Shown here one piece after another: positions 1,951-55,380 of a stretch of DNA of 64,000 bases (position 1 is its first letter; the number at the start of each line of letters is the position of its first letter). The position numbers and the translations under genes were made by a program. Below the pieces are notes generated by a model. It saw only the letters and a list, made by a program, of their open reading frames with translations, was not told the origin of the DNA and ran no database searches. The stretch is from Minisyncoccota bacterium (GTDB lineage: Bacteria; Patescibacteriota; Minisyncoccia; UBA6257; 2-01-FULL-56-20): NCBI GenBank assembly GCA_022843285.1, contig JALHNY010000005.1, positions 10,315 to 74,314 on the forward strand. The letters are read 5' to 3'.

Positions 1951-2177
1951 AGCGTCACGTGCCCTTCGCGAGCCACGCGCTGGTACGCGTGCTGCCACCA
2001 CGCCAGCTCCTCCGCGGCAGGACGAGGAGGAACCACTTCGATACCGAGCCCCACAAGCGTGAGTGCGAACACCATGAAGCAGCCGTGCTCCAACGAGGGC
2101 CCGCCGGAGCAGAGCCCCTGAAGCTCGTCGAGCTGTGAGAGAGGACCGCCACACCGCATGCACCGTTGGAGCGCCAT
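1947..2177 (-). CDS. small zinc-ribbon-like protein
   Basis: 76 aa with CxxC...CxxxxxC near the N-terminus. It is the first gene of the leftward operon, next to the divergent promoter region. Confidence 0.45.
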   Translation of the reverse strand: MALQRCMRCGGPLSQLDELQGLCSGGPSLEHGCFMVFALTLVGLGIEVVPPRPAAEELAWWQHAYQRVAREGHVTL

Positions 2178-2334
2178 GAGCGCCTTCTACCGAGACTCCC
2201 CACGGAAGGTCAACACATAGTTGTATTGACTCTGTTTGATTGATAAATAAGTTTTATTTATTTGACGCTGTTTGGCCCCTCGACCGATAAGAGTGCGGCC
2301 GCACTTCCCGTGCGTGCACTACGAGGAGCAAACC
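2178..2334. promoter_or_regulatory. divergent intergenic control region
   Basis: The only AT-rich stretch in the first 5 kb. It separates two outward-facing operons and carries TTGAC-type motifs and direct repeats. Confidence 0.45.
2226..2274. repeat. two 13-bp direct repeats TTGAC(T/G)CTGTTTG flanking an AT-rich core
   Basis: Read directly: TTGACTCTGTTTG ... ATTGATAAATAAGTTTTATTTAT ... TTGACGCTGTTTG. Confidence 0.5.
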
Positions 2335-2829
2335 ATGGCGAAGAACGACGTCGAGAACGAAGTGGCGCGGAACGACCGAGGCGAAGCGTACGTGACCGAG
2401 CTGCAGGAGTGGGCGAAGACGGTGTGGAAGGAGGGCTGCCTGCAGGGTGACCTCGCTCGCGACGAGAACCTCACCAACGATGAGGTCGCGATGCTCGAGT
2501 GCGCACGTGAGGGCTACCTCGCGGTGGTCGCCGCGCATGGCACCGAGGACTCGGCAGCTGACGTCATCCGCATCGTGAAGACGCGCATGGCGTCGGGACG
2601 CGACCAGTTCCTCGTGACGCTCCCCCGCAACGCGTTCCTCGTCGACGTCATCGCGTCGTGGCGCGCGCTCACCGACGTGCTCGCGAACCAGCAACACCCC
2701 GACATGCGCAGCCTGTTCGGCGACCTGGCCCGCCGCTTCGATGCGACGCTCGCGCTCGACGTGAACGGCAACCTCACCGGCCCGACTGCCGAAGCGATGG
2801 AAGCTGCGCGGAAGGGGCCGAAGCAGTGA
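2335..2829 (+). CDS. hypothetical protein
   Basis: ATG (MAKNDVENE...) preceded by a GGAGCA RBS. First gene of the rightward operon. Confidence 0.6.
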   Translation: MAKNDVENEVARNDRGEAYVTELQEWAKTVWKEGCLQGDLARDENLTNDEVAMLECAREGYLAVVAAHGTEDSAADVIRIVKTRMASGRDQFLVTLPRNAFLVDVIASWRALTDVLANQQHPDMRSLFGDLARRFDATLALDVNGNLTGPTAEAMEAARKGPKQ

Positions 2830-3113
2830 GTCGCGCGAAGACGCTTGTCGACGTCGCGATGAAGCGCAGCGCCGCGCTCTCGAAGGAGCGTCGCGCGTTC
2901 AAGAAGCTCGACGAGGTGACACGGGAGCACGAGGCGGTCGAACGTGCGGTGGAGTACGTGCGTCGGCGGCCGACGTTGGTCGCGGCGGCCGGCGGGCTCG
3001 AGAATCTCGAGCGCGCCTACGCGCGCGTCGACACCCGCCTCGACTCGGCGCGACTCGCCTGGCTTCGCGCGGTCAACGCCCTCGCGAAGCTCGAGGTGGA
3101 GAAGAAGGCGTGA
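2826..3113 (+). CDS. hypothetical coiled-coil protein
   Basis: GTG start overlapping the upstream stop (GTGA). Confidence 0.45.
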   Translation: MSRAKTLVDVAMKRSAALSKERRAFKKLDEVTREHEAVERAVEYVRRRPTLVAAAGGLENLERAYARVDTRLDSARLAWLRAVNALAKLEVEKKA

Positions 3114-3418
3114 AACCCTTCTCGACCGAACTGCGCGTGGCGCTCGACATCCTCAATGAGCGCGTGCCTGAGGCTGCGAAGGAGGTGGAGGCCGCGCTGG
3201 TGGCCTTCACGCTCCTGAAGCTGTTCGGCTCTTCCCTGCGTTACGACAATGGCAGCGGGTGGGGCCCGGACTTCGGCTCGCTGCGCATGGAGCTTCTTCG
3301 GGAAGCGTTCTTCCCCATTCACGTCGGCTACCATCCGCTGCACGCCGTCATCACCGGCGGCGAGTCGGTCGACGAGCAGCTGAAGGCCGTGCGCGCATGG
3401 CTTCGGGGTACGCCGTGA
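3110..3418 (+). CDS. hypothetical protein
   Basis: ATGA overlap with the upstream gene. 102 aa. Confidence 0.55.
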   Translation: MKPFSTELRVALDILNERVPEAAKEVEAALVAFTLLKLFGSSLRYDNGSGWGPDFGSLRMELLREAFFPIHVGYHPLHAVITGGESVDEQLKAVRAWLRGTP

Positions 3419-4005
3419 GCTCGTTCGACGAGCTGCACCTCAGCGTGCGCGCGGTCGAGTGGCTGCGTGATACGAGGTGGCCGCTGGTGAAGTACCGACA
3501 CCCCGTCGGACTGCCAGCGTGCTGGGGCGCGATGCACACGAAGGAGCAATGCGCCGAGCGCGGCTTCAAGGTGCCTGAAGACGTCACCCCGTGCCCCGAG
3601 TGCAAGGGGAAGCGCCGCGTGCAGGCTGCGTACTTCGAACGCGAGTACGACGAAGACGGCGAGCCTGAGTACGCCCGCCCAGTTCTCCGCGTGACGGACT
3701 GCGCGGCGTGCAAGGCCTCGGGGCTCGCGCTCCCGAAGCGCATGCTCGTCGGGGTTGTCGACGTGCGCGCCATCGTGCGTTCGAGAACGCCCGGCGCGAG
3801 CGGCCTGGTCTGGTACGAGGACAGGCACGGACAGCGGAAGGGCATGGCACCGCGCACGCCGACGTGCTCGCTCTGCGCCGTCATCTTCGACGAAGAGCTC
3901 ACAGCGACGAAGCAGCGGTGGGAGCTGATGGAGCGCGACGAGAACGGCGAGTGGGTGAAGGTCGAACGCGTCGCACCATTCGACGTGGAGTTCGTCAAGC
4001 CATGA
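3397..4005 (+). CDS. hypothetical Cys-rich protein (CPECKGK, CAAC, CSLC)
   Basis: ATG inside the longer ORF. Several CxxC pairs suggest zinc binding. Confidence 0.5.
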   Translation: MASGYAVSSFDELHLSVRAVEWLRDTRWPLVKYRHPVGLPACWGAMHTKEQCAERGFKVPEDVTPCPECKGKRRVQAAYFEREYDEDGEPEYARPVLRVTDCAACKASGLALPKRMLVGVVDVRAIVRSRTPGASGLVWYEDRHGQRKGMAPRTPTCSLCAVIFDEELTATKQRWELMERDENGEWVKVERVAPFDVEFVKP

Positions 4006-4337
4006 GCAGCAAGCCCGTCATGCCGAAGAAGCCGTGCTTCGGGTGCCCGTGGACGAAGGACTCCATTGTCGAAGCGGACACGCTGCGCTCCATCGTCGAG
4101 GGGCTGCGCAAGGACGACGTCCACTTCATCTGCCACAAGAAGCAGACGGAGCCCGAGTTGCACGACACGACCGTCGTGTGCCGCGGGTACTTCGACGGCG
4201 AGTTCCTGAAGCGCGGCACGGGCAACCTCATGCGCATCTACATGCGCCTGGGTGGCGTCACCGAGGTCGACTTCACGAAGTACGACCGCCGCGCGAAGAA
4301 GAAGATGATGCCCGCGCGACTCTGGAGCAAACGATGA
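4002..4337 (+). CDS. hypothetical protein (CFGCPW motif)
   Basis: ATGA overlap. In frame with ORF 3708-4337. Confidence 0.5.
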   Translation: MSSKPVMPKKPCFGCPWTKDSIVEADTLRSIVEGLRKDDVHFICHKKQTEPELHDTTVVCRGYFDGEFLKRGTGNLMRIYMRLGGVTEVDFTKYDRRAKKKMMPARLWSKR

Positions 4338-4666
4338 GCAAGTACGTCGACGCGATGCGCGAAGGCGTGAAGGCTGCTGCGGACGCGCAAGCGAACCGCC
4401 CTCGAGCCGCAGACCGCGTGGTGCAGCTCCTCGCCGAGCTGAACGACGCGGTGGTCGCCGCGCACGCGGAGCACTGGGAGACGACGCCGTTCGGATGGCA
4501 GCCGCTCGCCACAGCGCCGAGGGACCGTCCCATCCTCGCGTGGACGTCGGAGTCACGCGTCGTCATCGTGGAATGGGACAACGGGTTCGTCACGAAGATG
4601 CGGCACAACCCTCACGCGGAAACCATCACGCACTGGTGCTCGCTCCCGCCCCCGCCGTCGAAGTAG
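4334..4666 (+). CDS. hypothetical protein
   Basis: ATGA overlap. In frame with ORF 4034-4666. Confidence 0.5.
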   Translation: MSKYVDAMREGVKAAADAQANRPRAADRVVQLLAELNDAVVAAHAEHWETTPFGWQPLATAPRDRPILAWTSESRVVIVEWDNGFVTKMRHNPHAETITHWCSLPPPPSK

Positions 4667-4675
4667 AAGAGAGCC

Positions 4676-4996
4676 ATGGCCCGCCCGCGCACTCGACTGC
4701 CGACACCAGGTGAAGACTTCATGATGAGCGTCGCGCTCGACAGCGAGCTGGCGACCACCGTGCTGAACATCGCGCGGCGTGACGGCGTGAACGCGTCGCG
4801 CGTGCTGCGCGAGCTGGTGGCCGAAGGGCTCGCGTCGCGCGGCAACCGGGTGAACCACAGCCTGCTGCAGCGGCGTGAGGCGGTGCGTGAGGTGAAGGCG
4901 CAGGTGCTCGGCGAGGTGCGCGGTGCGGTCGCTGAGGCGATGAACCGTACGTGGGCCGCCGGGGAGCCCGGGCCCAAGCGCCGCCCCGGGCGGTGA
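4676..4996 (+). CDS. putative ribbon-helix-helix (CopG/Arc-like) DNA-binding protein
   Basis: GAAGAGAG RBS. The segment SRVLRELVAEGL resembles an RHH helix. It sits immediately upstream of a palindrome-rich region. Confidence 0.4.
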   Translation: MARPRTRLPTPGEDFMMSVALDSELATTVLNIARRDGVNASRVLRELVAEGLASRGNRVNHSLLQRREAVREVKAQVLGEVRGAVAEAMNRTWAAGEPGPKRRPGR

Positions 4997-5070
4997 CCAA
5001 CGAATCCGTTGGCCGGGACCAACGAAGTCGTTGGACCTACATGTAGGTGTATTCCTACCCGCACCTACAC
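4997..5070. repeat. operator-like palindromes: two copies of CCAACG-N4-CGTTGG, the perfect 12-bp palindrome CCTACATGTAGG, and CCTAC iterations
   Basis: Read directly from the sequence. The two 16-bp inverted repeats are centred about 22 bp apart. Confidence 0.55.
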
Positions 5071-5162
5071 GCACATACCCTTTCACCCCTGCAACCGAGT
5101 AACCCCTTGATTTAACAGGGGTATTGCAGAAACGAAAAACGCCCCTTTCAGGTTTGCAATCT

Positions 5163-5178
5163 TGGCACGGCCGGTGCT
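5163..5178 (+). promoter_or_regulatory. sigma-54-like -24/-12 element (TGGCAC-N5-GTGCT)
   Basis: TGGCACggccgGTGCT has one mismatch to TGGCAC-N5-TTGCW. It lies about 90 nt upstream of the 5271 gene. Confidence 0.25.
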
Positions 5179-5270
5179 CCGCTAACCCCATAGAAAAAGA
5201 GGGGTAGGGGGTTGGTCTGTCAAATGCAATACACCCCGTCACACAGCGCAGGTGACGAAAGGTCCTCTCG

Positions 5271-5702
5271 ATGAACACTCCTACCCTCCCCGCTCTCCTC
5301 GCGTACGTTCGCCGTGAAGCGCTCGTGCTGCAGAAGGAAGTCGAAGACGACGACGGCACCGTCCACTCGCTGCGCGTGTGCGCCGCCATGGTCGTCCGCC
5401 ACACGCGGCACCAGCGCGGCCAGGAACTGCCCCCGTACCCCCGCATCACGCGCCGGGAGCGTGAGCGGCGGGCGACCCTCAAGGAGCAGCGTGCAGCGCG
5501 CGCTCTCGTCGACGCCGCGCTCGAATTCCGCCGGGCGCTCACCAAGGTCTCTGACAGCGTCCTCCTCGACGGGTACACGAAGCTCGCCCGCCTCTCGCAG
5601 GACTCGTCGTTCGCCGACTCGCACGAGCCGCTCGCACGCCTCGCCGAGGCCGTGCTCACGGAGCAGAAGCAGCGCAACTTGAAGCGCACGGGGGAAGCAT
5701 GA
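5271..5702 (+). CDS. hypothetical protein
   Basis: 143-aa ORF that opens the next co-directional run after the control region. Confidence 0.55.
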   Translation: MNTPTLPALLAYVRREALVLQKEVEDDDGTVHSLRVCAAMVVRHTRHQRGQELPPYPRITRRERERRATLKEQRAARALVDAALEFRRALTKVSDSVLLDGYTKLARLSQDSSFADSHEPLARLAEAVLTEQKQRNLKRTGEA

Positions 5703-5917
5703 CGTACATCGCCGCTGTCGCCGAAGTGATGCGCGCGAAGCTCTACAACGAGACGGCGCTGCCGTGCCCTGAGTGCGACGCACCCGGCCCGCACGACTGC
5801 AACAGCGACCGCATCGAGCCCACGGCCTGCTGCACACGGTGCGGCGCTCACTTCGACCTGCACGACCACCCCACGATTCGCGAAGCCTTCGCAGAGGACC
5901 GCCATGCCGCCCACTGA
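5699..5917 (+). CDS. small zinc-finger protein (CPEC...C..C..CTRC)
   Basis: ATGA overlap with the upstream gene. Cys-rich. Confidence 0.5.
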   Translation: MTYIAAVAEVMRAKLYNETALPCPECDAPGPHDCNSDRIEPTACCTRCGAHFDLHDHPTIREAFAEDRHAAH

Positions 5918-6170
5918 CCGTCAACGCGCCCGCGCCATCGTGAGCGCCGCCGCCGCCCGCTTGAAGAAGTTCCCCTCGCTGCACGCCGCCCTCTTGGAAG
6001 ATTCGCGTGGGGTGTTCGAGCGAGACGTGCTCGCCCGGCTCGACAAGGTCACGGTGGTCACGACCCAGAAGAGCATCAGCGACGCCGACGTCGACGTGTA
6101 CCTGCGCGACGAGCTGTGCCTCGACGTGCTGCAGGCCGAGACCAACCGCCTCACGAAAAAAGGAGCTTGA
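5904..6170 (+). CDS. hypothetical protein
   Basis: 88-aa ORF in the co-directional run. Confidence 0.5.
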   Translation: MPPTDRQRARAIVSAAAARLKKFPSLHAALLEDSRGVFERDVLARLDKVTVVTTQKSISDADVDVYLRDELCLDVLQAETNRLTKKGA

Positions 6171-6174
6171 CCCC

Positions 6175-6774
6175 ATGACGACCTCCACCCCGTACACCCC
6201 CGCCGACGTTCGCTTGCTCGCGCCGCAGAAGCACGCCTTCAACGAAACCGTCGTCGTCGGGTACCACCGCTTGCTCGCCACCGCCGAGGCGCACGCCGCC
6301 GCGAAGACGCTCGTCGAGAACCTGAAGGTGACTGATTCGCTCAAGGTCTGCGAGACGCTCGACACGATTCGCCACCTCATCGAGGTGACGATGGCCGAAG
6401 ACGACGAGGGCGAGGCTGACCTGGCCGCGACGCTGGAGCGCGTGGCCTCGCTGCTCAGCAGCCCGGCGCTCGCACCCCTGACCGTCGTAGTCGTCGACTC
6501 GCTCACCGCGATGGGTGACCCGTCGTTCGGGAAGCCTGCTCCGCTCGCAGCGCAGACCGACACGACCGACCCGCACACCGGCCGCCGCACGCGTATCGAA
6601 GGCAAGCTCCGCTTCATCGGGGAGGCTTCGCAGAACCGTCACCCCGACAACGCGTGGAAGGTGGTCGGGTACCGCGACACGAAGGCTGGAGCCGCCGGTC
6701 TCGGGTACGGCTACGGCCACACGTTCGATGCTGCCGTCGACGACCTGAAGAAGCAGCAGAAGAAGGGGAGCTGA
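6175..6774 (+). CDS. hypothetical protein
   Basis: AAAGGAG RBS ahead of the ATG (MTTSTPY...). In frame with ORF 6007-6774. Confidence 0.55.
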   Translation: MTTSTPYTPADVRLLAPQKHAFNETVVVGYHRLLATAEAHAAAKTLVENLKVTDSLKVCETLDTIRHLIEVTMAEDDEGEADLAATLERVASLLSSPALAPLTVVVVDSLTAMGDPSFGKPAPLAAQTDTTDPHTGRRTRIEGKLRFIGEASQNRHPDNAWKVVGYRDTKAGAAGLGYGYGHTFDAAVDDLKKQQKKGS

Positions 6775-6777
6775 CCC

Positions 6778-7116
6778 ATGCGCTACACGATGCACGAGAA
6801 GGCCCCCGGCGAGAGCCCCAAGGGCACCGAGACGGTCTGGCACGGCGAGCCGAGCGACGACTTGGGCGACCGCGTGGGTGCCTTCGAGCGCGAAGCGATG
6901 CTCGCGGTCACCGCCGGGCTCACCAACATGAAGCCGGTGGCGGGCTCGGCGCGCTGGGCCACGAACACCGACACGGGCGAGTTCATCTTCGGCGCCTGCT
7001 TCATCACGTCGCGAGGCATGCGCCGCCCCGAGTGGCGCTGCTTCACCCCGACGACCGCACGCGCGTACTTCACCGACGGCGTCACCAATCCCTTCACCGC
7101 AGGAGCCCCGTCGTGA
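6778..7116 (+). CDS. hypothetical protein
   Basis: 112-aa ORF with a short intergenic gap. Confidence 0.5.
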   Translation: MRYTMHEKAPGESPKGTETVWHGEPSDDLGDRVGAFEREAMLAVTAGLTNMKPVAGSARWATNTDTGEFIFGACFITSRGMRRPEWRCFTPTTARAYFTDGVTNPFTAGAPS

Positions 7117-7328
7117 AGAAGCAGCGCAGCACCACGAAGGTCATCACCTGGTCGGCCACCACCGACGGCAGCAACATGAACACGAAGGTGTCCCTCTGTG
7201 CGAACCACGGGAACGGCGGAACGCTCGACCCGAGGCTTCCCCGCCCGGTGCAGGTCAGCCACGGCTTCCACGTGGGCGTCTGCGACGCCTGCGCGCTGAA
7301 CAACGACGTCAAAGGAGATGCACGATGA
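7113..7328 (+). CDS. hypothetical small Cys/His-rich protein
   Basis: GTG start overlapping the upstream stop (GTGA). Confidence 0.4.
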   Translation: MKKQRSTTKVITWSATTDGSNMNTKVSLCANHGNGGTLDPRLPRPVQVSHGFHVGVCDACALNNDVKGDAR

Positions 7329-8710
7329 GCCCCCCGCTTCGAAACGATGGACGCCTCGGCAAGCAGCTCGACCGTGTGGAGCGCGTGGTGAAGGCTCGCT
7401 TGAGTGGACTGCTGCGCGCACTCGATGGCCGGTACATCGATGGCGCGCTCGACGTGAACCCTCCACGCACGGCGCTCGTCGCGCTCGCGCCTTGGGCTCA
7501 GCCGTCCGAGGGGCACCCGGTCACCGCGCGCACCGAGTGGGTGGATGCCATCGAGCGCGACGTGCTCGACGACGTGCGCATCGAAGACCTGCACTCGCTG
7601 TGCATTGACCCTCGCGACGGCGCGCTCATCCGCGAGGGCGGCCGGGGCGGTGGTCTCGCCGTCACGCCGAAGGCCTTCGGTCAGGCCGTCAATCTGATGC
7701 TCGATGCGGGCTCGAGGGTGCGCGGCGTGGCTGGGGTGCTGCACCACCAGCTGCACCCGCCCGCGCGGTCGGTTGCGTTCGAAGACGTTCGCGCTGACGG
7801 CGTGCAGAACAAGGTGAAGCCCGCGCTGCTCCGCACCTACCGGCACACCGAGACCGGCCTGCGCACGGTGCGCGCAGTGCTCTCGCAGAAGTACCCGACG
7901 AACTACTTCGACGACCTGCAGCTCCTCCCGCACCTGGACGCCGTTCTCGAGCCCACCGCTCGGGCTCGCATCAGCCGAGGCGTCGACGAGACCTTCGGCG
8001 TGGCCACGGTGAAGCTCGACGGCGTGAAGCACGTCGAGGGTGCCCTGCACTGGCGCAACAGCGAGACGGGCGCCGCACGCTTAGGCTTCTACGCAGGCCT
8101 CCGCATCACCGCGCTCGACGCCATCGTCTCAGCGCCGGCGCGCGGCGTGACGGTCGACGTCGACGACGTCACGCGCGCCACCCGTGAGGTGGAGGTGACG
8201 GTCGCGCACACGTCGGGCTCGAAGGCCATCAGCCACACGCTGCCGTGGTCGGGGTGGACCGAAGAAGAGCGCCAGGTCGAAGCGCGGCGCCGCATCACGA
8301 ACGCGCTGGAGACGGGCCTGCTCGAGGTGCGACGCCTCGCTCACTTGTGGAACATCGCGCTCGTCGACTTCCCTCTGCACTTCGCCGGGTCGGCCAATCG
8401 GACCGAGACCGTCGACGTGCTGATGGATTTCCTCGAAGAGGCGGGCGCACTGGGCGCCGACTCGAAGTTCCGGGCGCCGCTCGCCGAGGTGCTCGCCAAC
8501 GAAGAGCGTCTGAGGCTGCTCCCGTTCGCCAGCGCGGCCCACGTCGCTGCCGCCTGGGCGGTCATCGGGCGGAACTGCAAGACGCACGACGAGCAGGTCG
8601 AAGCGCAGGAACTCGGCGGCCTGTGGGTCTCCGAGGGTTGGCGTGGCACCGGTACCGGTCGCGACGCTCGTTCAGCACTCACGAAGTCTTTCCGGGGAGT
8701 CGCATCATGA
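7325..8710 (+). CDS. hypothetical 461-aa protein
   Basis: Long ORF with ATGA overlaps at both ends. Confidence 0.6.
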   Translation: MSPPLRNDGRLGKQLDRVERVVKARLSGLLRALDGRYIDGALDVNPPRTALVALAPWAQPSEGHPVTARTEWVDAIERDVLDDVRIEDLHSLCIDPRDGALIREGGRGGGLAVTPKAFGQAVNLMLDAGSRVRGVAGVLHHQLHPPARSVAFEDVRADGVQNKVKPALLRTYRHTETGLRTVRAVLSQKYPTNYFDDLQLLPHLDAVLEPTARARISRGVDETFGVATVKLDGVKHVEGALHWRNSETGAARLGFYAGLRITALDAIVSAPARGVTVDVDDVTRATREVEVTVAHTSGSKAISHTLPWSGWTEEERQVEARRRITNALETGLLEVRRLAHLWNIALVDFPLHFAGSANRTETVDVLMDFLEEAGALGADSKFRAPLAEVLANEERLRLLPFASAAHVAAAWAVIGRNCKTHDEQVEAQELGGLWVSEGWRGTGTGRDARSALTKSFRGVAS

Positions 8711-9060
8711 AGCACCCATCACCGTGGCGAGAAGCGCAGTCCCGGGGAGCACGAACAAAGGTCTACGACGCAGACGGCAACCGTGTGGGGCTCGGCTCTG
8801 CGGGCATTCGCGCTCGCATCGTGAAGGCAGTCAACGCAGCAGAACAGCCCGGGAGCGTGAAGAACAAGGTCACCTCAAGGGTGTCTCTGGCGGTGAGCAT
8901 CAGCACGGTGAAGCAACGTGAGTTCCTCATGCCGGCCGATGGACGCGCGGCGCTCGCGCACATCCTCACGGTGCTGGAGGAACTCCTCGAAGCCGAAGAC
9001 GAGCGTCAGCTCGAGGACAAGCGCGCCCGAGAGAAAGAGCCCCGGGGGAGAGCACCATGA
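8707..9060 (+). CDS. hypothetical protein
   Basis: ATGA overlap with the upstream gene. Confidence 0.5.
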   Translation: MKHPSPWREAQSRGARTKVYDADGNRVGLGSAGIRARIVKAVNAAEQPGSVKNKVTSRVSLAVSISTVKQREFLMPADGRAALAHILTVLEELLEAEDERQLEDKRAREKEPRGRAP

Positions 9061-9281
9061 CGACCGCGAAGAAGAAGGCCCCCCTCATCCCCGTGCGCGA
9101 CCTCTTCAGCGGGGACGTGCTCCTGGCGCGGTGTCGTCGGCCGGCGCTCAAGGCAGGGTGGACCCAGGAGGACTGGGACGAATTCCTCAAGGAAGCGAAG
9201 ACCGGGAACCGCAGCTCGCAGAGTGACTACGACCACCTCGTGCAGACCATCATGACGTTCTTCGAGGAGACCGACGAATGA
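9057..9281 (+). CDS. hypothetical protein
   Basis: ATGA overlap with the upstream gene. Confidence 0.5.
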   Translation: MTTAKKKAPLIPVRDLFSGDVLLARCRRPALKAGWTQEDWDEFLKEAKTGNRSSQSDYDHLVQTIMTFFEETDE

Positions 9282-9514
9282 CCCGCGCCGAAGCTGCAGC
9301 TGTGCTCCGCAAGATGGCCTCCGAGTCGAAAGCTCTGGTGGCGATGGTGGAGAAGGACCTCGCGGACAACGCCTCGAGCCCCACCGCCGAGCAGCTCGAC
9401 GAGCACCGCGTGCGGCTCGCCGTCGCGAAGTTCTTCACTTTGAAGGCTGCCGTCTGGGAGAACACGTGCCGCAACGGCTCGTGTCAGTGGAAGCCGGAGG
9501 ACCTGCTGCCGTGA
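9278..9514 (+). CDS. hypothetical protein
   Basis: ATGA overlap with the upstream gene. Confidence 0.5.
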   Translation: MTRAEAAAVLRKMASESKALVAMVEKDLADNASSPTAEQLDEHRVRLAVAKFFTLKAAVWENTCRNGSCQWKPEDLLP

Positions 9515-9708
9515 CCCTCCTTCAGCGAAAGCTCGACCGCGAAGGGCCCTACGGCGAGGAAGAGTTCGAAGCGAGCGCGCACCCCGAAGTCTGGGTGCGG
9601 CTCGACGTCGCGCTCAACGCCCTGAAGGCGATTCGAGACGACGTCGACGCCAGTGCGAACGTGCTGCGCGAGCTGGCCGCTGCAGCGCTCAAGGCTGGTG
9701 GCCGATGA
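9511..9708 (+). CDS. hypothetical protein
   Basis: GTG start overlapping the upstream stop (GTGA). Confidence 0.4.
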   Translation: MTLLQRKLDREGPYGEEEFEASAHPEVWVRLDVALNALKAIRDDVDASANVLRELAAAALKAGGR

Positions 9709-9989
9709 GGACGGTGAAGAAGAGCGCCAACGGGTGGACGCGCCGCATCGCGCTCATCTGTGATGCCCCTGGCTGCATCGAAGAAGTGAAGTGGGACGTC
9801 GGCACAGGGGCGCAGGTCATCCCCGAAGGCGGAGTCCAGCACCCCCGCGAGCGGTGGCTCACGCTCAAGCGCGGAACGACGTCGTCGTACGAAGAGAAGA
9901 CCATCGATTACTGCCCGACGTGCGCTCCCGTCGTGCTTGACGTCTTGCGTGAGCGCGGTCTCGTCAACGCTGGAACCACCATCGAATGA
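9705..9989 (+). CDS. small zinc-ribbon protein (C..C...CPTC)
   Basis: ATGA overlap with the upstream gene. Confidence 0.5.
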   Translation: MRTVKKSANGWTRRIALICDAPGCIEEVKWDVGTGAQVIPEGGVQHPRERWLTLKRGTTSSYEEKTIDYCPTCAPVVLDVLRERGLVNAGTTIE

Positions 9990-10327
9990 AAGGAAGTCTT
10001 GTGCCGAACACCTCTCCGCAGCACCTCTCCCCTACCCCACTCACTCGAGCTGAAGTCGAGGCGTGGCCTCCCCTGGGCCCCATGAGCATCGACAAGGCGC
10101 GCGTGCTCGCGCTGTTCGACCGACTCGAACCACTCGAAGCTGCCTTCGCTGCAGCGACACCGAGCTTGGAAGCCGAAGCGCTCGACGCCGTGCAGGCCGC
10201 GAACGAACTGCTCACGCACCTGTACAAGGTGGTCCCTTGGGGAGCCACCTTCGACCTGAACATCTCGCAGCTCAACTCGGTGACGTGCCTTCTTCCGACG
10301 GTCTTGGCCAAGGCAGGTCGCCGATGA
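9986..10327 (+). CDS. hypothetical protein
   Basis: ATGA overlap with the upstream gene. Confidence 0.5.
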   Translation: MKGSLVPNTSPQHLSPTPLTRAEVEAWPPLGPMSIDKARVLALFDRLEPLEAAFAAATPSLEAEALDAVQAANELLTHLYKVVPWGATFDLNISQLNSVTCLLPTVLAKAGRR

Positions 10328-11070
10328 ACGCCCTCAGCGTGAACAACCACGCCGTCCTCCGGTTTCGTGAGCGCGCCAACAGCTGGCTCGACATGCAGCC
10401 CAAACCGCGTGGGTTGAAGGGGAAGAAGAGCTCTGTCGAGGAAGAAGCTCGCGTCATCCTCGCTGAGGTCATCACCGCCGCGCTGAAGAGCCCGGAGCGG
10501 GCCCAGGTCGTCTACGATTCCCGCGAGCGCCGGGAAATCTGTGTGGTCGACCTGTACGAGGCCCTTGGCGATTCGTTCGACCTTCACGCCGTGCTCTCCG
10601 TCGAGCGTGACGCCGTCATCACGGTGCTCGACGGCACGATGGTCGACACCAACTGGGAGTCGAAGCGCTGGCTCAAGAAGGACGGGACGCCCCGAGGCAT
10701 GGGGACGCTCGCCGACAAGCTCAAGGGCATCACCCTCCCCCCGATTCCGAAGCTCGCTCCCATCCTCACCCCTCTCCCTGCTCCCACGGTTCCAATGCCC
10801 CCTCCGCACCACCCGCCTGTCGTTCCCACGCCGAAACCCGCCATCATCACCGCGCTCGAAGACGCTGAAGAGGCGCGGCAGCAGCGAAAGCAAAACTCGA
10901 AGGAGGAGCGGCTCGTCGAAATCCTCGTCGCCGGGAAGGAGAAGTACACGCACTACGAATCAAAGGAGGCTGCGGCCGACGCCATCGCGCGGCTGAAGCT
11001 CGACGGCACACCGTACGCCGTGTGGAAGCGCGTCATCGTGAAGGTCACCGTCGCTGTGGAGGAGGAATGA
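10324..11070 (+). CDS. hypothetical protein with a Pro-rich linker
   Basis: ATGA overlap. Contains the stretch PPIPKLAPILTPLPAPTVPMPPPHHPPVVPTPKP. Confidence 0.55.
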   Translation: MNALSVNNHAVLRFRERANSWLDMQPKPRGLKGKKSSVEEEARVILAEVITAALKSPERAQVVYDSRERREICVVDLYEALGDSFDLHAVLSVERDAVITVLDGTMVDTNWESKRWLKKDGTPRGMGTLADKLKGITLPPIPKLAPILTPLPAPTVPMPPPHHPPVVPTPKPAIITALEDAEEARQQRKQNSKEERLVEILVAGKEKYTHYESKEAAADAIARLKLDGTPYAVWKRVIVKVTVAVEEE

Positions 11071-11609
11071 ACTATTCAGGCACCGTCGAGCTGGAAAACT
11101 CCGAAGTCGCAGGCCACCTCATCGACTACCTCGAGCTGGCGGTCGAGGCGCGCGAACTGCTCCGGGCACTCATCCTCGTGGGGAAGTGGCCCGATGCGGT
11201 GGACGTCATGGGCGCGCTTCAGGCGCGCGAAATCGAGAAGAAGCGTGCGCTGCTCACTCATCTGAGGGTGACCCTCAACGACAAAGAGCGCGCGAAGCTC
11301 ACCGAGCAGCTGCAGCTCGACCGCATCGACAACCCGGAGTACCGAGGACTCATCTTCGAGGAGTGGAACGCGCTGTCGCACCGCTGGACCGAAGCAGTAC
11401 GCGAGGAGGAAGTGAGGCGAGGCGAAGGCCCTCGCCCGGTGCTCGAGGAGCTGAAGAACGCACGCCTCGTCATCGCGGTGCTGCTCGAACTCATCAACGA
11501 GCTCATCCACCTCAACGGGGTCTATGCCGCGATGCAGGCGTCGAAGTCAGCAGGCCCGGTGCTGCTCAAGGCGCTCACCTGGCACAGTCGCGCCCGCCCG
11601 GGGTACTGA
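11067..11609 (+). CDS. hypothetical protein
   Basis: ATGA overlap. Last gene of the plus-strand operon. Confidence 0.55.
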   Translation: MNYSGTVELENSEVAGHLIDYLELAVEARELLRALILVGKWPDAVDVMGALQAREIEKKRALLTHLRVTLNDKERAKLTEQLQLDRIDNPEYRGLIFEEWNALSHRWTEAVREEEVRRGEGPRPVLEELKNARLVIAVLLELINELIHLNGVYAAMQASKSAGPVLLKALTWHSRARPGY

Positions 11610-11618
11610 AACGAGAAA

Positions 11619-11645
11619 GGGCCCCGCAGTCGCCCGCGGGGCCCC
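11619..11645. terminator. GC-rich hairpin (GGGCCCCGC ... GCGGGGCCC) between convergent operons
   Basis: Perfect 9-bp stem. A T-rich tail follows only in the minus-strand reading. Confidence 0.45.
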
Positions 11646-11682
11646 ACGAAGGTTGAAGGAACGAGGACTGAAGCCCCGCACC

Positions 11683-11788
11683 TTAGCGCTTGCTGCGCTT
11701 GTTCTTCAGGCACTGGCCCTTGCGCTTTCCGCGCTTGACCACGCCGTGCTTGCAGTGACGCTTCTTCCTGCGGTGCATGATTTCCATG
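11683..11788 (-). CDS. 34-aa highly basic micro-protein (MEIMHRRKKRHCKHGVVKRGKRKGQCLKNKRSKR)
   Basis: Not in the ORF track, which omits ORFs under 60 aa. AAGGAGG RBS 7 nt upstream of the ATG; ends in a TAA stop. Confidence 0.6.
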
Positions 11789-11850
11789 TCGTCGTTCCTC
11801 CTTTTCTTTCAGAGTCGCTCAGTACGTGCAGCGTTGCGAGAGCGCGGACC

Positions 11851-11979
11851 TTAGCGCTTGCCCTTCAGGCACTTCTTCGCGTGCGCGCGGTAGCTGTGAG
11901 TCGACTTGTACTTCGCCGACTTCGCGTTCCACTCGCGGGCGCACTTCTTCATCTTCGAGCCCTGTTTCGCCATGGTCAT
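11851..11979 (-). CDS. 40-42-aa highly basic micro-protein (M(TM)AKQGSKMKKCAREWNAKSAKYKSTHSYRAHAKKCLKGKR)
   Basis: AAGGAG RBS. Its ATG overlaps the upstream stop (ATGA). Confidence 0.55.
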   Translation of the reverse strand: MTMAKQGSKMKKCAREWNAKSAKYKSTHSYRAHAKKCLKGKR

Positions 11980-12281
11980 TTCTCCTTCAGCTTGTCGTTC
12001 GCGAACCATCCGCCGGCGCCGCCCAGGACAGCAGCAGCGAGCAGCCACCCCCACAACGGGAGCGTGATGTTGAAGAGCGTGACCGGCGTCTGCAGCAGCT
12101 CGGTGGTGGTCGGTTGCGCGCTGGGCTGAACCGAGGAGCCCGTCGACCCGACACCCGAGAGCATCATCACCGCGCTGTCGTCGCCGAGCGCGCCGCCGCT
12201 CGCCTCGCCGAGGCCGGAGATGAACCGTCCCCCGGTGGGCGTGACGTTCAGCATGCCGAGCAGGTGCGCGTTGTTCGTCAT
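11976..12281 (-). CDS. small membrane protein (C-proximal TM helix)
   Basis: Hydrophobic segment LPLWGWLLAAAVLGGAGGWF. Confidence 0.5.
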   Translation of the reverse strand: MTNNAHLLGMLNVTPTGGRFISGLGEASGGALGDDSAVMMLSGVGSTGSSVQPSAQPTTTELLQTPVTLFNITLPLWGWLLAAAVLGGAGGWFANDKLKEK

Positions 12282-50265: not shown

Positions 50266-50295
50266 TTGACAGGTGGAATGCCCGTCCCGTAGAAG
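50266..50295 (+). promoter_or_regulatory. promoter TTGACA-N18-TAGAAG ending 6 nt before the ATG (leaderless transcript likely)
   Basis: Read directly. The same motif occurs at 53052. Confidence 0.4.
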
Positions 50296-55272: not shown

Positions 55273-55356
55273 GGGCACGATGCTCTACTGGACTGAGCGC
55301 CGGGCTGTAAACCCGGTGAGCGCAAGCTCAAGCAGGTTCGATTCCTGCCGGGCCCA
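55273..55356 (+). tRNA. tRNA-Tyr (anticodon GTA), type II with a long variable arm, no encoded CCA
   Basis: Acceptor stem GGGCACG/CGGGCCC with one A-G mismatch. D-stem GCTC/GAGC. Anticodon stem CCGGG/CCCGG with loop CTGTAAA. Variable arm GAGC-GCAA-GCTC. T-arm GCAGG-TTCGATT-CCTGC. Confidence 0.55.
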
Positions 55357-55380
55357 CTCCTTCTACGAGGAGAAACACCA

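Follow-up and report, generated by a model that had tools for sequence, protein, structure and literature searches.

The 64-kb window analysed here (the whole stretch of 64,000 nucleotides taken from contig JALHNY010000005.1) is phage-like, has a GC content of 65% and belongs to a novel high-GC phage. In this window, the gap at positions 4997-5270, which separates a gene predicted to encode a ribbon-helix-helix (RHH)-like DNA-binding protein from the gene starting at 5271, is very probably a cis-regulatory DNA region. Indeed, the first-pass annotation of this sequence had described a regulatory hub next to an RHH gene; all the motifs that it listed are present where it placed them, and the gap proved to be a real cis-regulatory cluster, tied to the RHH-like gene, single-copy and kept in eight lineages. 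There is about an even chance that the gap is, more precisely, a single-copy, DNA-level, activator-type transcription-control region that starts the operon at 5271. In the mechanism proposed here, (i) the RHH-like protein would bind, as cooperating dimers, to TGTAGG half-sites (5036-5069) that lie mostly one helical turn apart, (ii) one or two bends of the integration host factor (IHF) type would follow downstream of the array (5100-5112, plus 5183-5195, the latter decayed in this lineage), (iii) a promoter devoid of a sigma-70 -35/-10 pair would lie at the 3' edge of the conserved block (GG-N10-GC, 5213-5228, start at about 5239), a stronger and non-conserved match (5163-5178) being additionally present in the window lineage, and (iv) the DNA bends would carry the upstream-bound proteins to RNA polymerase, as at enhancer-type (sigma-54) or other IHF-assisted promoters. 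What was observed directly is the conservation, the clustering, the fixed spacing, the presence in one copy and the absence of an RNA fold; the binding partners, the sigma factor used and the activator or repressor role of the RHH protein are what we infer.

The genes located between about 2272 and 11609 on the forward strand form a co-directional row in which most of them overlap or abut, and the gap (274 bp) is the sole large break in it. The GC content of the gap drops to 0.46-0.56 versus about 0.68, making it the only large low-GC trough of that gene row. Eight lineages were compared, namely the window, L008, L017, L010/L018, L019, L022, L023 and L025, several of which are represented by short contigs; the contigs of the seven relatives originate from public assemblies and were all reached through exact-protein look-ups, and L024 is one distant member. 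Each close lineage has an RHH-like gene followed by a gap of 245-990 bp. Several lineages have, ahead of the RHH-like gene, the gene of a protein of 202-211 amino acids (aa); past the gap come small genes that vary, then a conserved orphan of 441-478 aa. The first gene past the gap differs by lineage and encodes 143, 129, 231 or 455 aa, or else a long stretch devoid of genes takes its place. The order of elements shared by the eight lineages is as follows: RHH gene, TGTAGG array, TGCAA, IHF-like site 1, CCTTTCAGGTYTGCAA, GC-rich spacer, IHF-like site 2, GGGGTATGG and TGCAAT. The core of this module is about 76% identical between lineages, a value as high as that of the adjacent coding sequence, and its flanks and spacer are not conserved. 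The core blocks, the IHF consensus and TGCAAT are found nowhere else in the intergenic regions of the window and GGGTAT is found once elsewhere, the module being present in a single copy.

The CCTAC repeats, first annotated as an operator array, recur as a CCTAC/TGTAGG array right after the RHH stop codon in 8/8 lineages, which is consistent with that function. Exact TGTAGG/CCTACA sites number 26 in the 820 bp that extend from the RHH stop codon to the first IHF-like site (zones summed across the eight lineages), against 6 in the other 96 kb; 0.05 would be expected in these zones (Poisson P of about 1e-60), and the enrichment beside the RHH gene is several-hundred-fold. The spacings within the array are of 10 bp (direct repeats), 6 bp (palindrome) and 13 or 22-23 bp, and the orientation patterns vary between lineages. 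From this association, the RHH protein probably binds TGTAGG. The other repeats described upstream, a pair of CCAACG-N4-CGTTGG palindromes, lie within a 22-bp tandem duplication beginning at the RHH stop codon. Their presence is well beyond chance (2 exact matches in 64 kb versus 0.02 expected, with 0/100 shuffles reaching two), but they are not a conserved feature: they are absent from L008, L017, L018, L019, L022, L023 and L025, and thus occur in the window lineage only. They could act as operators of a second type or as a pair of 3' hairpins. In L023, a perfect and unrelated 22-bp palindrome (GAGTTCTCTCCGGAGAGAACTC, 1303-1324) overlaps the RHH stop codon in place of the twin palindromes.

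The conserved core follows the array, with TGCAA located 10 bp upstream of IHF-like site 1 in 6/8 lineages. The exact IHF consensus (TAACCCCTTGATT) has its only match of the 64-kb window at this site, and the motif TAACCCCTTGAT(T/A), which is the reverse complement of WATCAANNNNTTR, is kept in 8/8 lineages. The site is embedded in an inverted repeat (ACCCCT-N9-AGGGGT, 5102-5122); counted from it, GGGTAT comes at +19 and CCTTTCAGGTYTGCAA between about +45 and +60, and the latter block is followed by a variable GC-rich spacer of 22-32 bp. The unit TAACCCC-N11-GGGGTA occurs twice, at 5100 and at 5183. The IHF consensus, this repeated unit, the repeated CCCTTTCA-N5-TGCAA and the GG-N10-GC element at 5213-5228 were not listed in the first-pass annotation. 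IHF-like site 2 lies at +83 to +94 (at +124 in L019, where one additional unit is present); it shows no mismatch in L008, L018 and L019, one mismatch in L017, L022, L023 and L025, and is decayed to TAACCCCATAGAA in the window (5183-5195), where the TTGAT part now reads ATAGA. Judged by their sequence, the IHF-like sites could equally well be real bending sites or not. No gene of the HU/IHF family was found among the window proteins scanned, which represent a part of the open reading frames (ORFs).

Downstream of IHF-like site 1, two elements resemble the sigma-54 consensus TGGCACG-N4-TTGCW, in which G-24 and C-12 are near-invariant (PMC3538637), and are referred to below as P1 (5163-5178) and P2 (5213-5228). 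P2 was found by scoring all the gaps against this consensus, GG and GC being required. It occupies the same alignment position in the seven aligned lineages, with an invariant TGG, an invariant (T)GCA, 5-6 variable bases in between and zero indels, which is the pattern expected for a bipartite site with strict spacing. The block that contains it can be written GGGGTATGG(C/T)C-N6-(A)TGCAAT(AG)CCCCCGGT, and the lineages diverge past there: the predicted start, 12 nt past the C of GC, falls at about 5239, where the lineages stop aligning. Relative to this start, IHF-like site 2 extends from about -56 to -44, IHF-like site 1 from -139 to -127 and the array from about -203 to -170; IHF-like site 2 and the -12-like TGCA are 42 bp apart in L017, L019 and L022, despite the differing sequence between them. 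By analogy, the arrangement centred on P2 is the classical enhancer, IHF site and -24/-12 promoter layout, and the initial proposal of an enhancer-type promoter agrees with this succession of upstream repeats, IHF-type site and -24/-12-like element. The evidence for P2 is conservation and not rarity, because about one match per 64 kb is expected by chance (for TGGYM-N6-WTGCW, one match in the window and 0.9 expected). A promoter of the sigma-54 type is a serious possibility, at somewhat less than an even chance.

P1 is the element that the first-pass annotation had singled out, with the twin palindromes and the CCTAC repeats as operators or enhancer. The 16-mer does lie one mismatch from the consensus and is the best sigma-54 match of the window. 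No shuffle of the gap equals it, TGGCAC-N5-KTGCW has no other match in 64 kb, and when one mismatch more is allowed P1 alone is found, for 4.2 matches expected by chance; furthermore, IHF-like site 1 would stand at about -89 to -77 from the P1 start, an acceptable position. However, 16% of the 64-kb shuffles (16/100) give at least one such match, the twin palindromes are confined to the window lineage, and P1 did not turn out to be a conserved element: it falls in the variable spacer, and its GG and GC are both kept in 3/8 lineages (the window, L008 and L023, the last two having TGGCACG and a correctly spaced GC). The sequence TGGCACG is shared by the window, L008, L017 and L023 and becomes AGGCACG in L018; L017 and L018 no longer have the -12 part. 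L022 and L025 carry the motif in inverted form (CGTGCCA), and L019 does not have it. P1 doubles as a GCAC-N5-GTGC palindrome, and the motif lies within the small palindromes GCGTGGCACGC and CACGCGTG in L017 and L023, respectively. It is therefore improbable that the promoter of the gap is P1 flanked by such operators, and just as improbable that P1 specifically is the sigma-54-type promoter.

The main rival explanation retains the same control region and has its promoter read by a sigma-70-family factor, either the host sigma-A assisted by an activator or a factor encoded by the phage itself (49408-50205, forward strand, 265 aa). In that case, GG-N10-GC would be a coincidental assembly of parts of protein-binding motifs, and the IHF-like sites could be -35-like TTGAT elements or sites for a phage protein. 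The phage factor has significant matches to Sigma70_r2 (E=4.6e-10) and r4 (E=5e-12) and a weak one to r3; TGGCAC forms part of small palindromes in several lineages and has the opposite orientation in two; and a TTGAWT is located 15 bp upstream of TATGGC in the second unit of several lineages, as read by eye. On the other side, no -35/-10 pair is acceptable at normal spacing: no sigma-70-type promoter was found in a scan of 4400-5700, and manual fitting on either strand of the gap gave only poor or wrongly spaced pairs. Moreover, a promoter class served by a phage sigma factor should recur, whereas the other intergenic regions of the window have no TGCAAT and a single GGGTAT, and the clear promoters of the window differ. 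Indeed, the promoter-like sequence GCTTGACA-N16-18-TAGAAG is found on the forward strand at 50266, 53052 and 63128 (with TAGGAC at 63128), upstream of genes of the replication block, and is unlike anything in the gap. This rival is rather unlikely, and somewhat less likely than a sigma-54-type promoter. Readings of the TTGAT block as a sigma-32, FNR, CtrA or Caulobacter-type site were compared by eye and did not fit.

Several points also weigh against the preferred reading, in which an RHH protein, IHF-type bends and a P2-centred promoter act together. The phage has a sigma-70-family factor of its own, which is a candidate reader of the gap promoter and could be used there in place of sigma-54. 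P2 matches the sigma-54 consensus at 8-9/12 positions (8/12 in the window), is not convincingly above shuffles in any one lineage and was spotted post hoc. No sigma-54-like site was found elsewhere in the 64 kb. The central four bases of IHF-like site 1 are conserved beyond the needs of IHF, which suggests that another protein is bound there. The RHH fold lacks statistical support from Pfam, AlphaFold2 (AF2), hhalign and Foldseek. Lastly, no relatives were obtained when viral, metagenome and genome contigs were searched with the RHH protein or its alignment, the 143-aa protein, the alignment of the 461-aa protein and the DNA pattern of the module. An enhancer-binding protein encoded by the phage was also considered and rejected: regular expressions for GAFTGA plus Walker A, applied to the six-frame translation, gave one match, in a non-coding frame, and the Pfam scans covered a part of the ORFs.

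The gene called CopG-like in the first instance is an ORF with the correct RHH register, and its family assignment stays below threshold. Pfam RHH_1 matches one of four members, with E=0.058 and 13.8 bits for a cutoff of 20.5, residues 18-52 aligning with positions 3-37 of the 39-position profile; the hhalign comparisons with CopG and Mnt likewise gave correct registers with scores that are not significant. The protein starts with a basic arm (MARPRTRLPTPGEDF) and continues with a putative beta-strand (MSVALD), a pair of helices around G37-x-x-x-S41, a long helix in the C-terminal part (residues 61-94) and a basic tail. Position 4676 rather than 4721 is the likely start, because the arm MARPRTRLPTPGEDF is kept in homologues. 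The invariant residues S18, V19, L21, G37, V38, A40 and L44 agree with the RHH pattern (strand, helix, G-x-x-x-S turn, helix), and the putative recognition strand MSV(A/P)LD is invariant in the members that carry the array. The AF2 monomer is too poor to be of use, with a predicted local distance difference test (pLDDT) score of 57; it shows helices at 23-36 and 40-56, and the strand expected at 17-22 is a low-confidence helix. Foldseek with this poor model gave no match at E<=0.001, and no sequence match was found in PHROG, NCBIfam or PDB. About ten homologues exist among billions of predicted proteins, none of them named or assigned a domain. Membership of the RHH superfamily is no more than plausible.

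The conserved block could also be a structured non-coding RNA or a 5' leader. The gap does fold better than shuffles on both strands (z of about -3), and a structured GC-rich stretch follows the module in L019 and L022; however, similar z-scores on the two strands fit palindromic DNA, the consensus fold of the module across seven lineages reaches -8.6 kcal/mol with a positive (unfavourable) covariation term, and Rfam 15 gave no match at E<=1 on 4950-5320. What is conserved is blocks of primary sequence at fixed distances rather than paired arms, a pattern indicative of DNA recognition by proteins. An RNA reading of the gap is very improbable and was rejected. The stretch in L019 (1190-1848) and L022 (4497-4895) is long, gene-free and GC-rich, comes right after the module, is 70% identical over about 215 nt and begins where the P2 start is predicted; its consensus fold of -107 kcal/mol includes several compensatory pairs (from two independent sequences only), it has no Rfam match, and it may be a structured leader or non-coding RNA. 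In L018, a candidate type III hammerhead ribozyme (4467-4523, forward strand; RF00008, 38.2 bits, E=5.4e-5, under the gathering score of 48.5) with the core CUGACGAG...CGAAAC lies about 290 nt past the module, where an ORF of 131 aa was called; positions 2000 to 12000 of the window have no counterpart of it.

Another possibility is a nucleoprotein site for a DNA transaction (attP-like, oriT-like or replication origin, or packaging) built by the RHH protein and IHF, on the model of TraY and IHF at F oriT or of Int, Xis and IHF at lambda attP. Several observations are in line with it, namely the single copy per genome, the two IHF-like sites about 84 bp apart around a variable GC-rich palindromic spacer, the tyrosine integrases encoded 2-4 kb upstream in L008 and L022, the integrase that adjoins the distant RHH homologue in L024, the 51-kb L022 contig that ends 613 bp past the RHH gene, and the F relaxosome, in which RHH trains and IHF are assembled (PMC12117103). 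However, the module never adjoins an integrase and is intact in every spanning contig, the L022 sequence past the module is homologous to phage sequence of L019, so that no host junction is present there, and the weakly terminase-like gene of the window lies 20 kb away on the other strand. Furthermore, no large-scale GC-skew feature was found, reading the gap revealed no DnaA box, and the window proteins scanned include no Rep or relaxase family. This explanation is improbable, slightly more so than P1. The idea of an origin-like iteron cluster, raised at first, was not borne out: the repeats of the gap are sites of 6-7 bp in mixed orientation and its lowest GC content is 0.46, so that repeat type, GC content, skew and the missing Rep family and DnaA box all count against an iteron-type replication origin. 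The L022 contig (SRR22184539_12750, 51,410 bp) ends in a GC-rich hairpin, which may correspond to the end of the genome or to a break in the assembly; two contigs similar to it, of 50-200 kb, have been reported. A thioredoxin gene accompanies the integrase gene 2-4 kb upstream in L022.

Features of the gap and of the adjoining genes, with positions numbered from the first letter of the window
Feature	Position	Strand	Sequence or remark
RHH-like DNA-binding protein gene (predicted)	4676-4996	+	106 aa, from translation
Twin 16-bp perfect palindromes CCAACG-N4-CGTTGG	4997-5012 and 5019-5034		CCAACGAATCCGTTGG and CCAACGAAGTCGTTGG; 22 bp start to start
12-bp palindrome	5036-5047		CCTACATGTAGG; unique in the window; a single match is not rare (27/100 shuffles)
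TGTAGG/CCTACA half-site array	5036-5069		Sites at 5036 (-), 5042 (+), 5054 (variant CCTACC, -) and 5064 (CCTACA, -)
CCCTTTCA-N5-TGCAA, copy 1	5078-5094	+	Repeat; copy 2 at 5143
IHF-consensus site 1	5100-5123 (core 5100-5112)	-	AATCAAGGGGTTA versus consensus WATCAANNNNTTR, 13/13
Conserved block, second TTTCA-N5-TGCAA copy	5144-5159	+	CCTTTCAGGTTTGCAA; unique in the window at <=3 mismatches; near-invariant across lineages
P1, sigma-54-like TGGCACG-GCCG-GTGCT	5163-5178	+	TGGCACGGCCGGTGCT; 11/12 consensus positions; start at about 5189 if functional
Second TAACCCC-N11-GGGGTA unit	5183-5206	+	IHF-like site 2 YAANNNNTTGAW in relatives; decayed in the window
P2, bipartite TGG(C/T)C-N6-(A)TGCA	5213-5230 (GG-N10-GC element 5213-5228)	+	TGGTCTGTCAAATGCA(AT); predicted start at about 5239
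P2 in the window	5213-5228	+	TGGTCTGTCAAATGCA
P2 in L008			TGGCCCCGACAATGCA
P2 in L017			TGGCCCTCAGAATGCA
P2 in L023			TGGCCCCAACAATGCA
P2 in L022			TGGCCTCCCGAATGCA
P2 in L019			TGGTCCCAGAACTGCA
P2 in L018			TGGCCGCTAAATCGCA
Short leader	5238-5270	+	Hairpin GTCAC-N9-GTGAC (5238-5256), Shine-Dalgarno-like GAAAGG (5257-5262), ATG at 5271
First gene of the downstream unit	5271-5702	+	143 aa, no known family
461-aa orphan protein gene	7325-8710	+	40-48% identity in the lineages whose contigs reach there; always further downstream

The leader motif GGTCAC..CGCAGC..ACGAA is common to the window, L008, L017 and L023. No match was found for the 461-aa orphan in Pfam, PHROG, NCBIfam or PDB, and its AF2 model (pLDDT 41) is too poor to use; the 143-aa and 202-aa proteins and their neighbours have no match above threshold in Pfam, PHROG or NCBIfam. 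Besides the sigma-70-family factor described above and a tRNA-Tyr, the window has genes for a family-A DNA polymerase, helicases of the SNF2 and DEAD types, an RNA ligase, a primase-like DUF3987 protein, a fusion of RadC and JAB, and a DNA methylase. Megablast of 4000-7000 against phages gave no match, tblastn with the polymerase, the helicase and the methylase gave distant matches to phages of mixed hosts, and no close relative of the window was found among deposited phages. The best methylase matches are Rhizobium and Sinorhizobium phages (about 51% identity), and a weak match to the Bradyrhizobiaceae small RNA BjrC68 (11610-11692, reverse strand; 23.6 bits, E=0.013, below gathering) sits in the convergent gap that separates the forward and reverse gene blocks; together they give a faint hint, and no more, of an alphaproteobacterial host. 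The strongest AT-rich trough of the window (2162-2325, GC 0.35) lies between divergent gene blocks, contains several TTGA(C/T)T and TAAAT-like hexamers and is probably an early divergent promoter region. On the reverse strand, a 799-aa protein (24783-27182) weakly matches two PHROGs, one of the terminase large subunit (E=3e-4) and one of an HNH endonuclease (E=4e-4), and could represent a terminase into which an HNH domain was inserted. Also on that strand, a 609-aa protein (29754-31583) combines a weak match to GNAT acetyltransferases with a RadC-like JAB domain at the C-terminus (E=5e-27). The tRNA-Tyr (GTA) gene (55273-55357, forward strand) is located inside the replication gene block.

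Among known systems, the RHH regulators Arc and Mnt of phage P22, CopG and omega are compared here on the basis of established knowledge and of a review cited in PMC12117103. They would have in common with the window protein a basic N-terminal arm, a beta-strand and a pair of helices with the G-x-x-x-S turn, and the omega heptads and CopG share with the array sites of 6-7 bp, direct and inverted, about one helical turn apart. The C-terminal helix (61-94) presumably resembles the tetramerisation helix of Mnt and, by analogy, could join dimers. Unlike these regulators, the window protein has no significant sequence or fold match, and its array lies downstream of its own gene, about 170-200 bp upstream of the likely start and not over -35/-10 elements. 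The IHF-assisted sigma-54 promoters nifH, glnHp2 and Pu resemble the gap in their upstream repeats, in the placement of an IHF consensus (about -44 to -56, as seen in the relatives) and in a GG-N10-GC with fixed spacing and without sigma-70 hexamers; in contrast to them, P2 matches the consensus only partially (8-9/12 positions), and no enhancer-binding protein motif was found in the coding frames of the window. The RHH protein cannot itself activate sigma-54, because it has no AAA+ domain. At the algD promoter of Pseudomonas aeruginosa, the Arc-like RHH protein AmrZ binds far upstream and IHF sites are present. AmrZ is described as an activator or a repressor (PMC3325190). It is a host chromosomal regulator, unlike the phage protein of the window, and the likeness concerns the RHH type. 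At the oriT relaxosome of the F plasmid, a train of the RHH protein TraY acts with IHF (PMC12117103); the gap may be likened to it as a single-copy locus of about 250 bp with an RHH protein on adjacent sites and IHF-bent DNA, although no relaxase, nic site or transfer genes were found and the window is that of a phage with a DNA polymerase, helicases and an RNA ligase.

Taken at its fullest, the preferred reading is that a temperate-type high-GC phage family runs a key operon through a host sigma-54, IHF-dependent enhancer-type promoter gated by an RHH protein on a TGTAGG array; so complete a version is doubtful. Promoters of the sigma-54 type require a signal-sensing host activator and are silent without it, and to our knowledge next to none has been described among the developmental promoters of phages. 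Should the conserved GG-N10-GC element prove real, a host signal would be read directly by these phages, at one control point, and if the gating by sigma-54, IHF and the RHH protein holds true, the developmental decision of the phage would be tied to a host enhancer-binding protein and hence to a physiological signal of the host. The comparison of lineages indicates that the best-looking consensus match in a single genome (P1) is not the conserved element, and that a promoter module of fixed geometry stays constant while the genes behind it are swapped. Even without sigma-54, the gap and the adjacent gene would provide a compact and testable system, composed of a new family of about ten small DNA-binding proteins and its probable 6-bp site.

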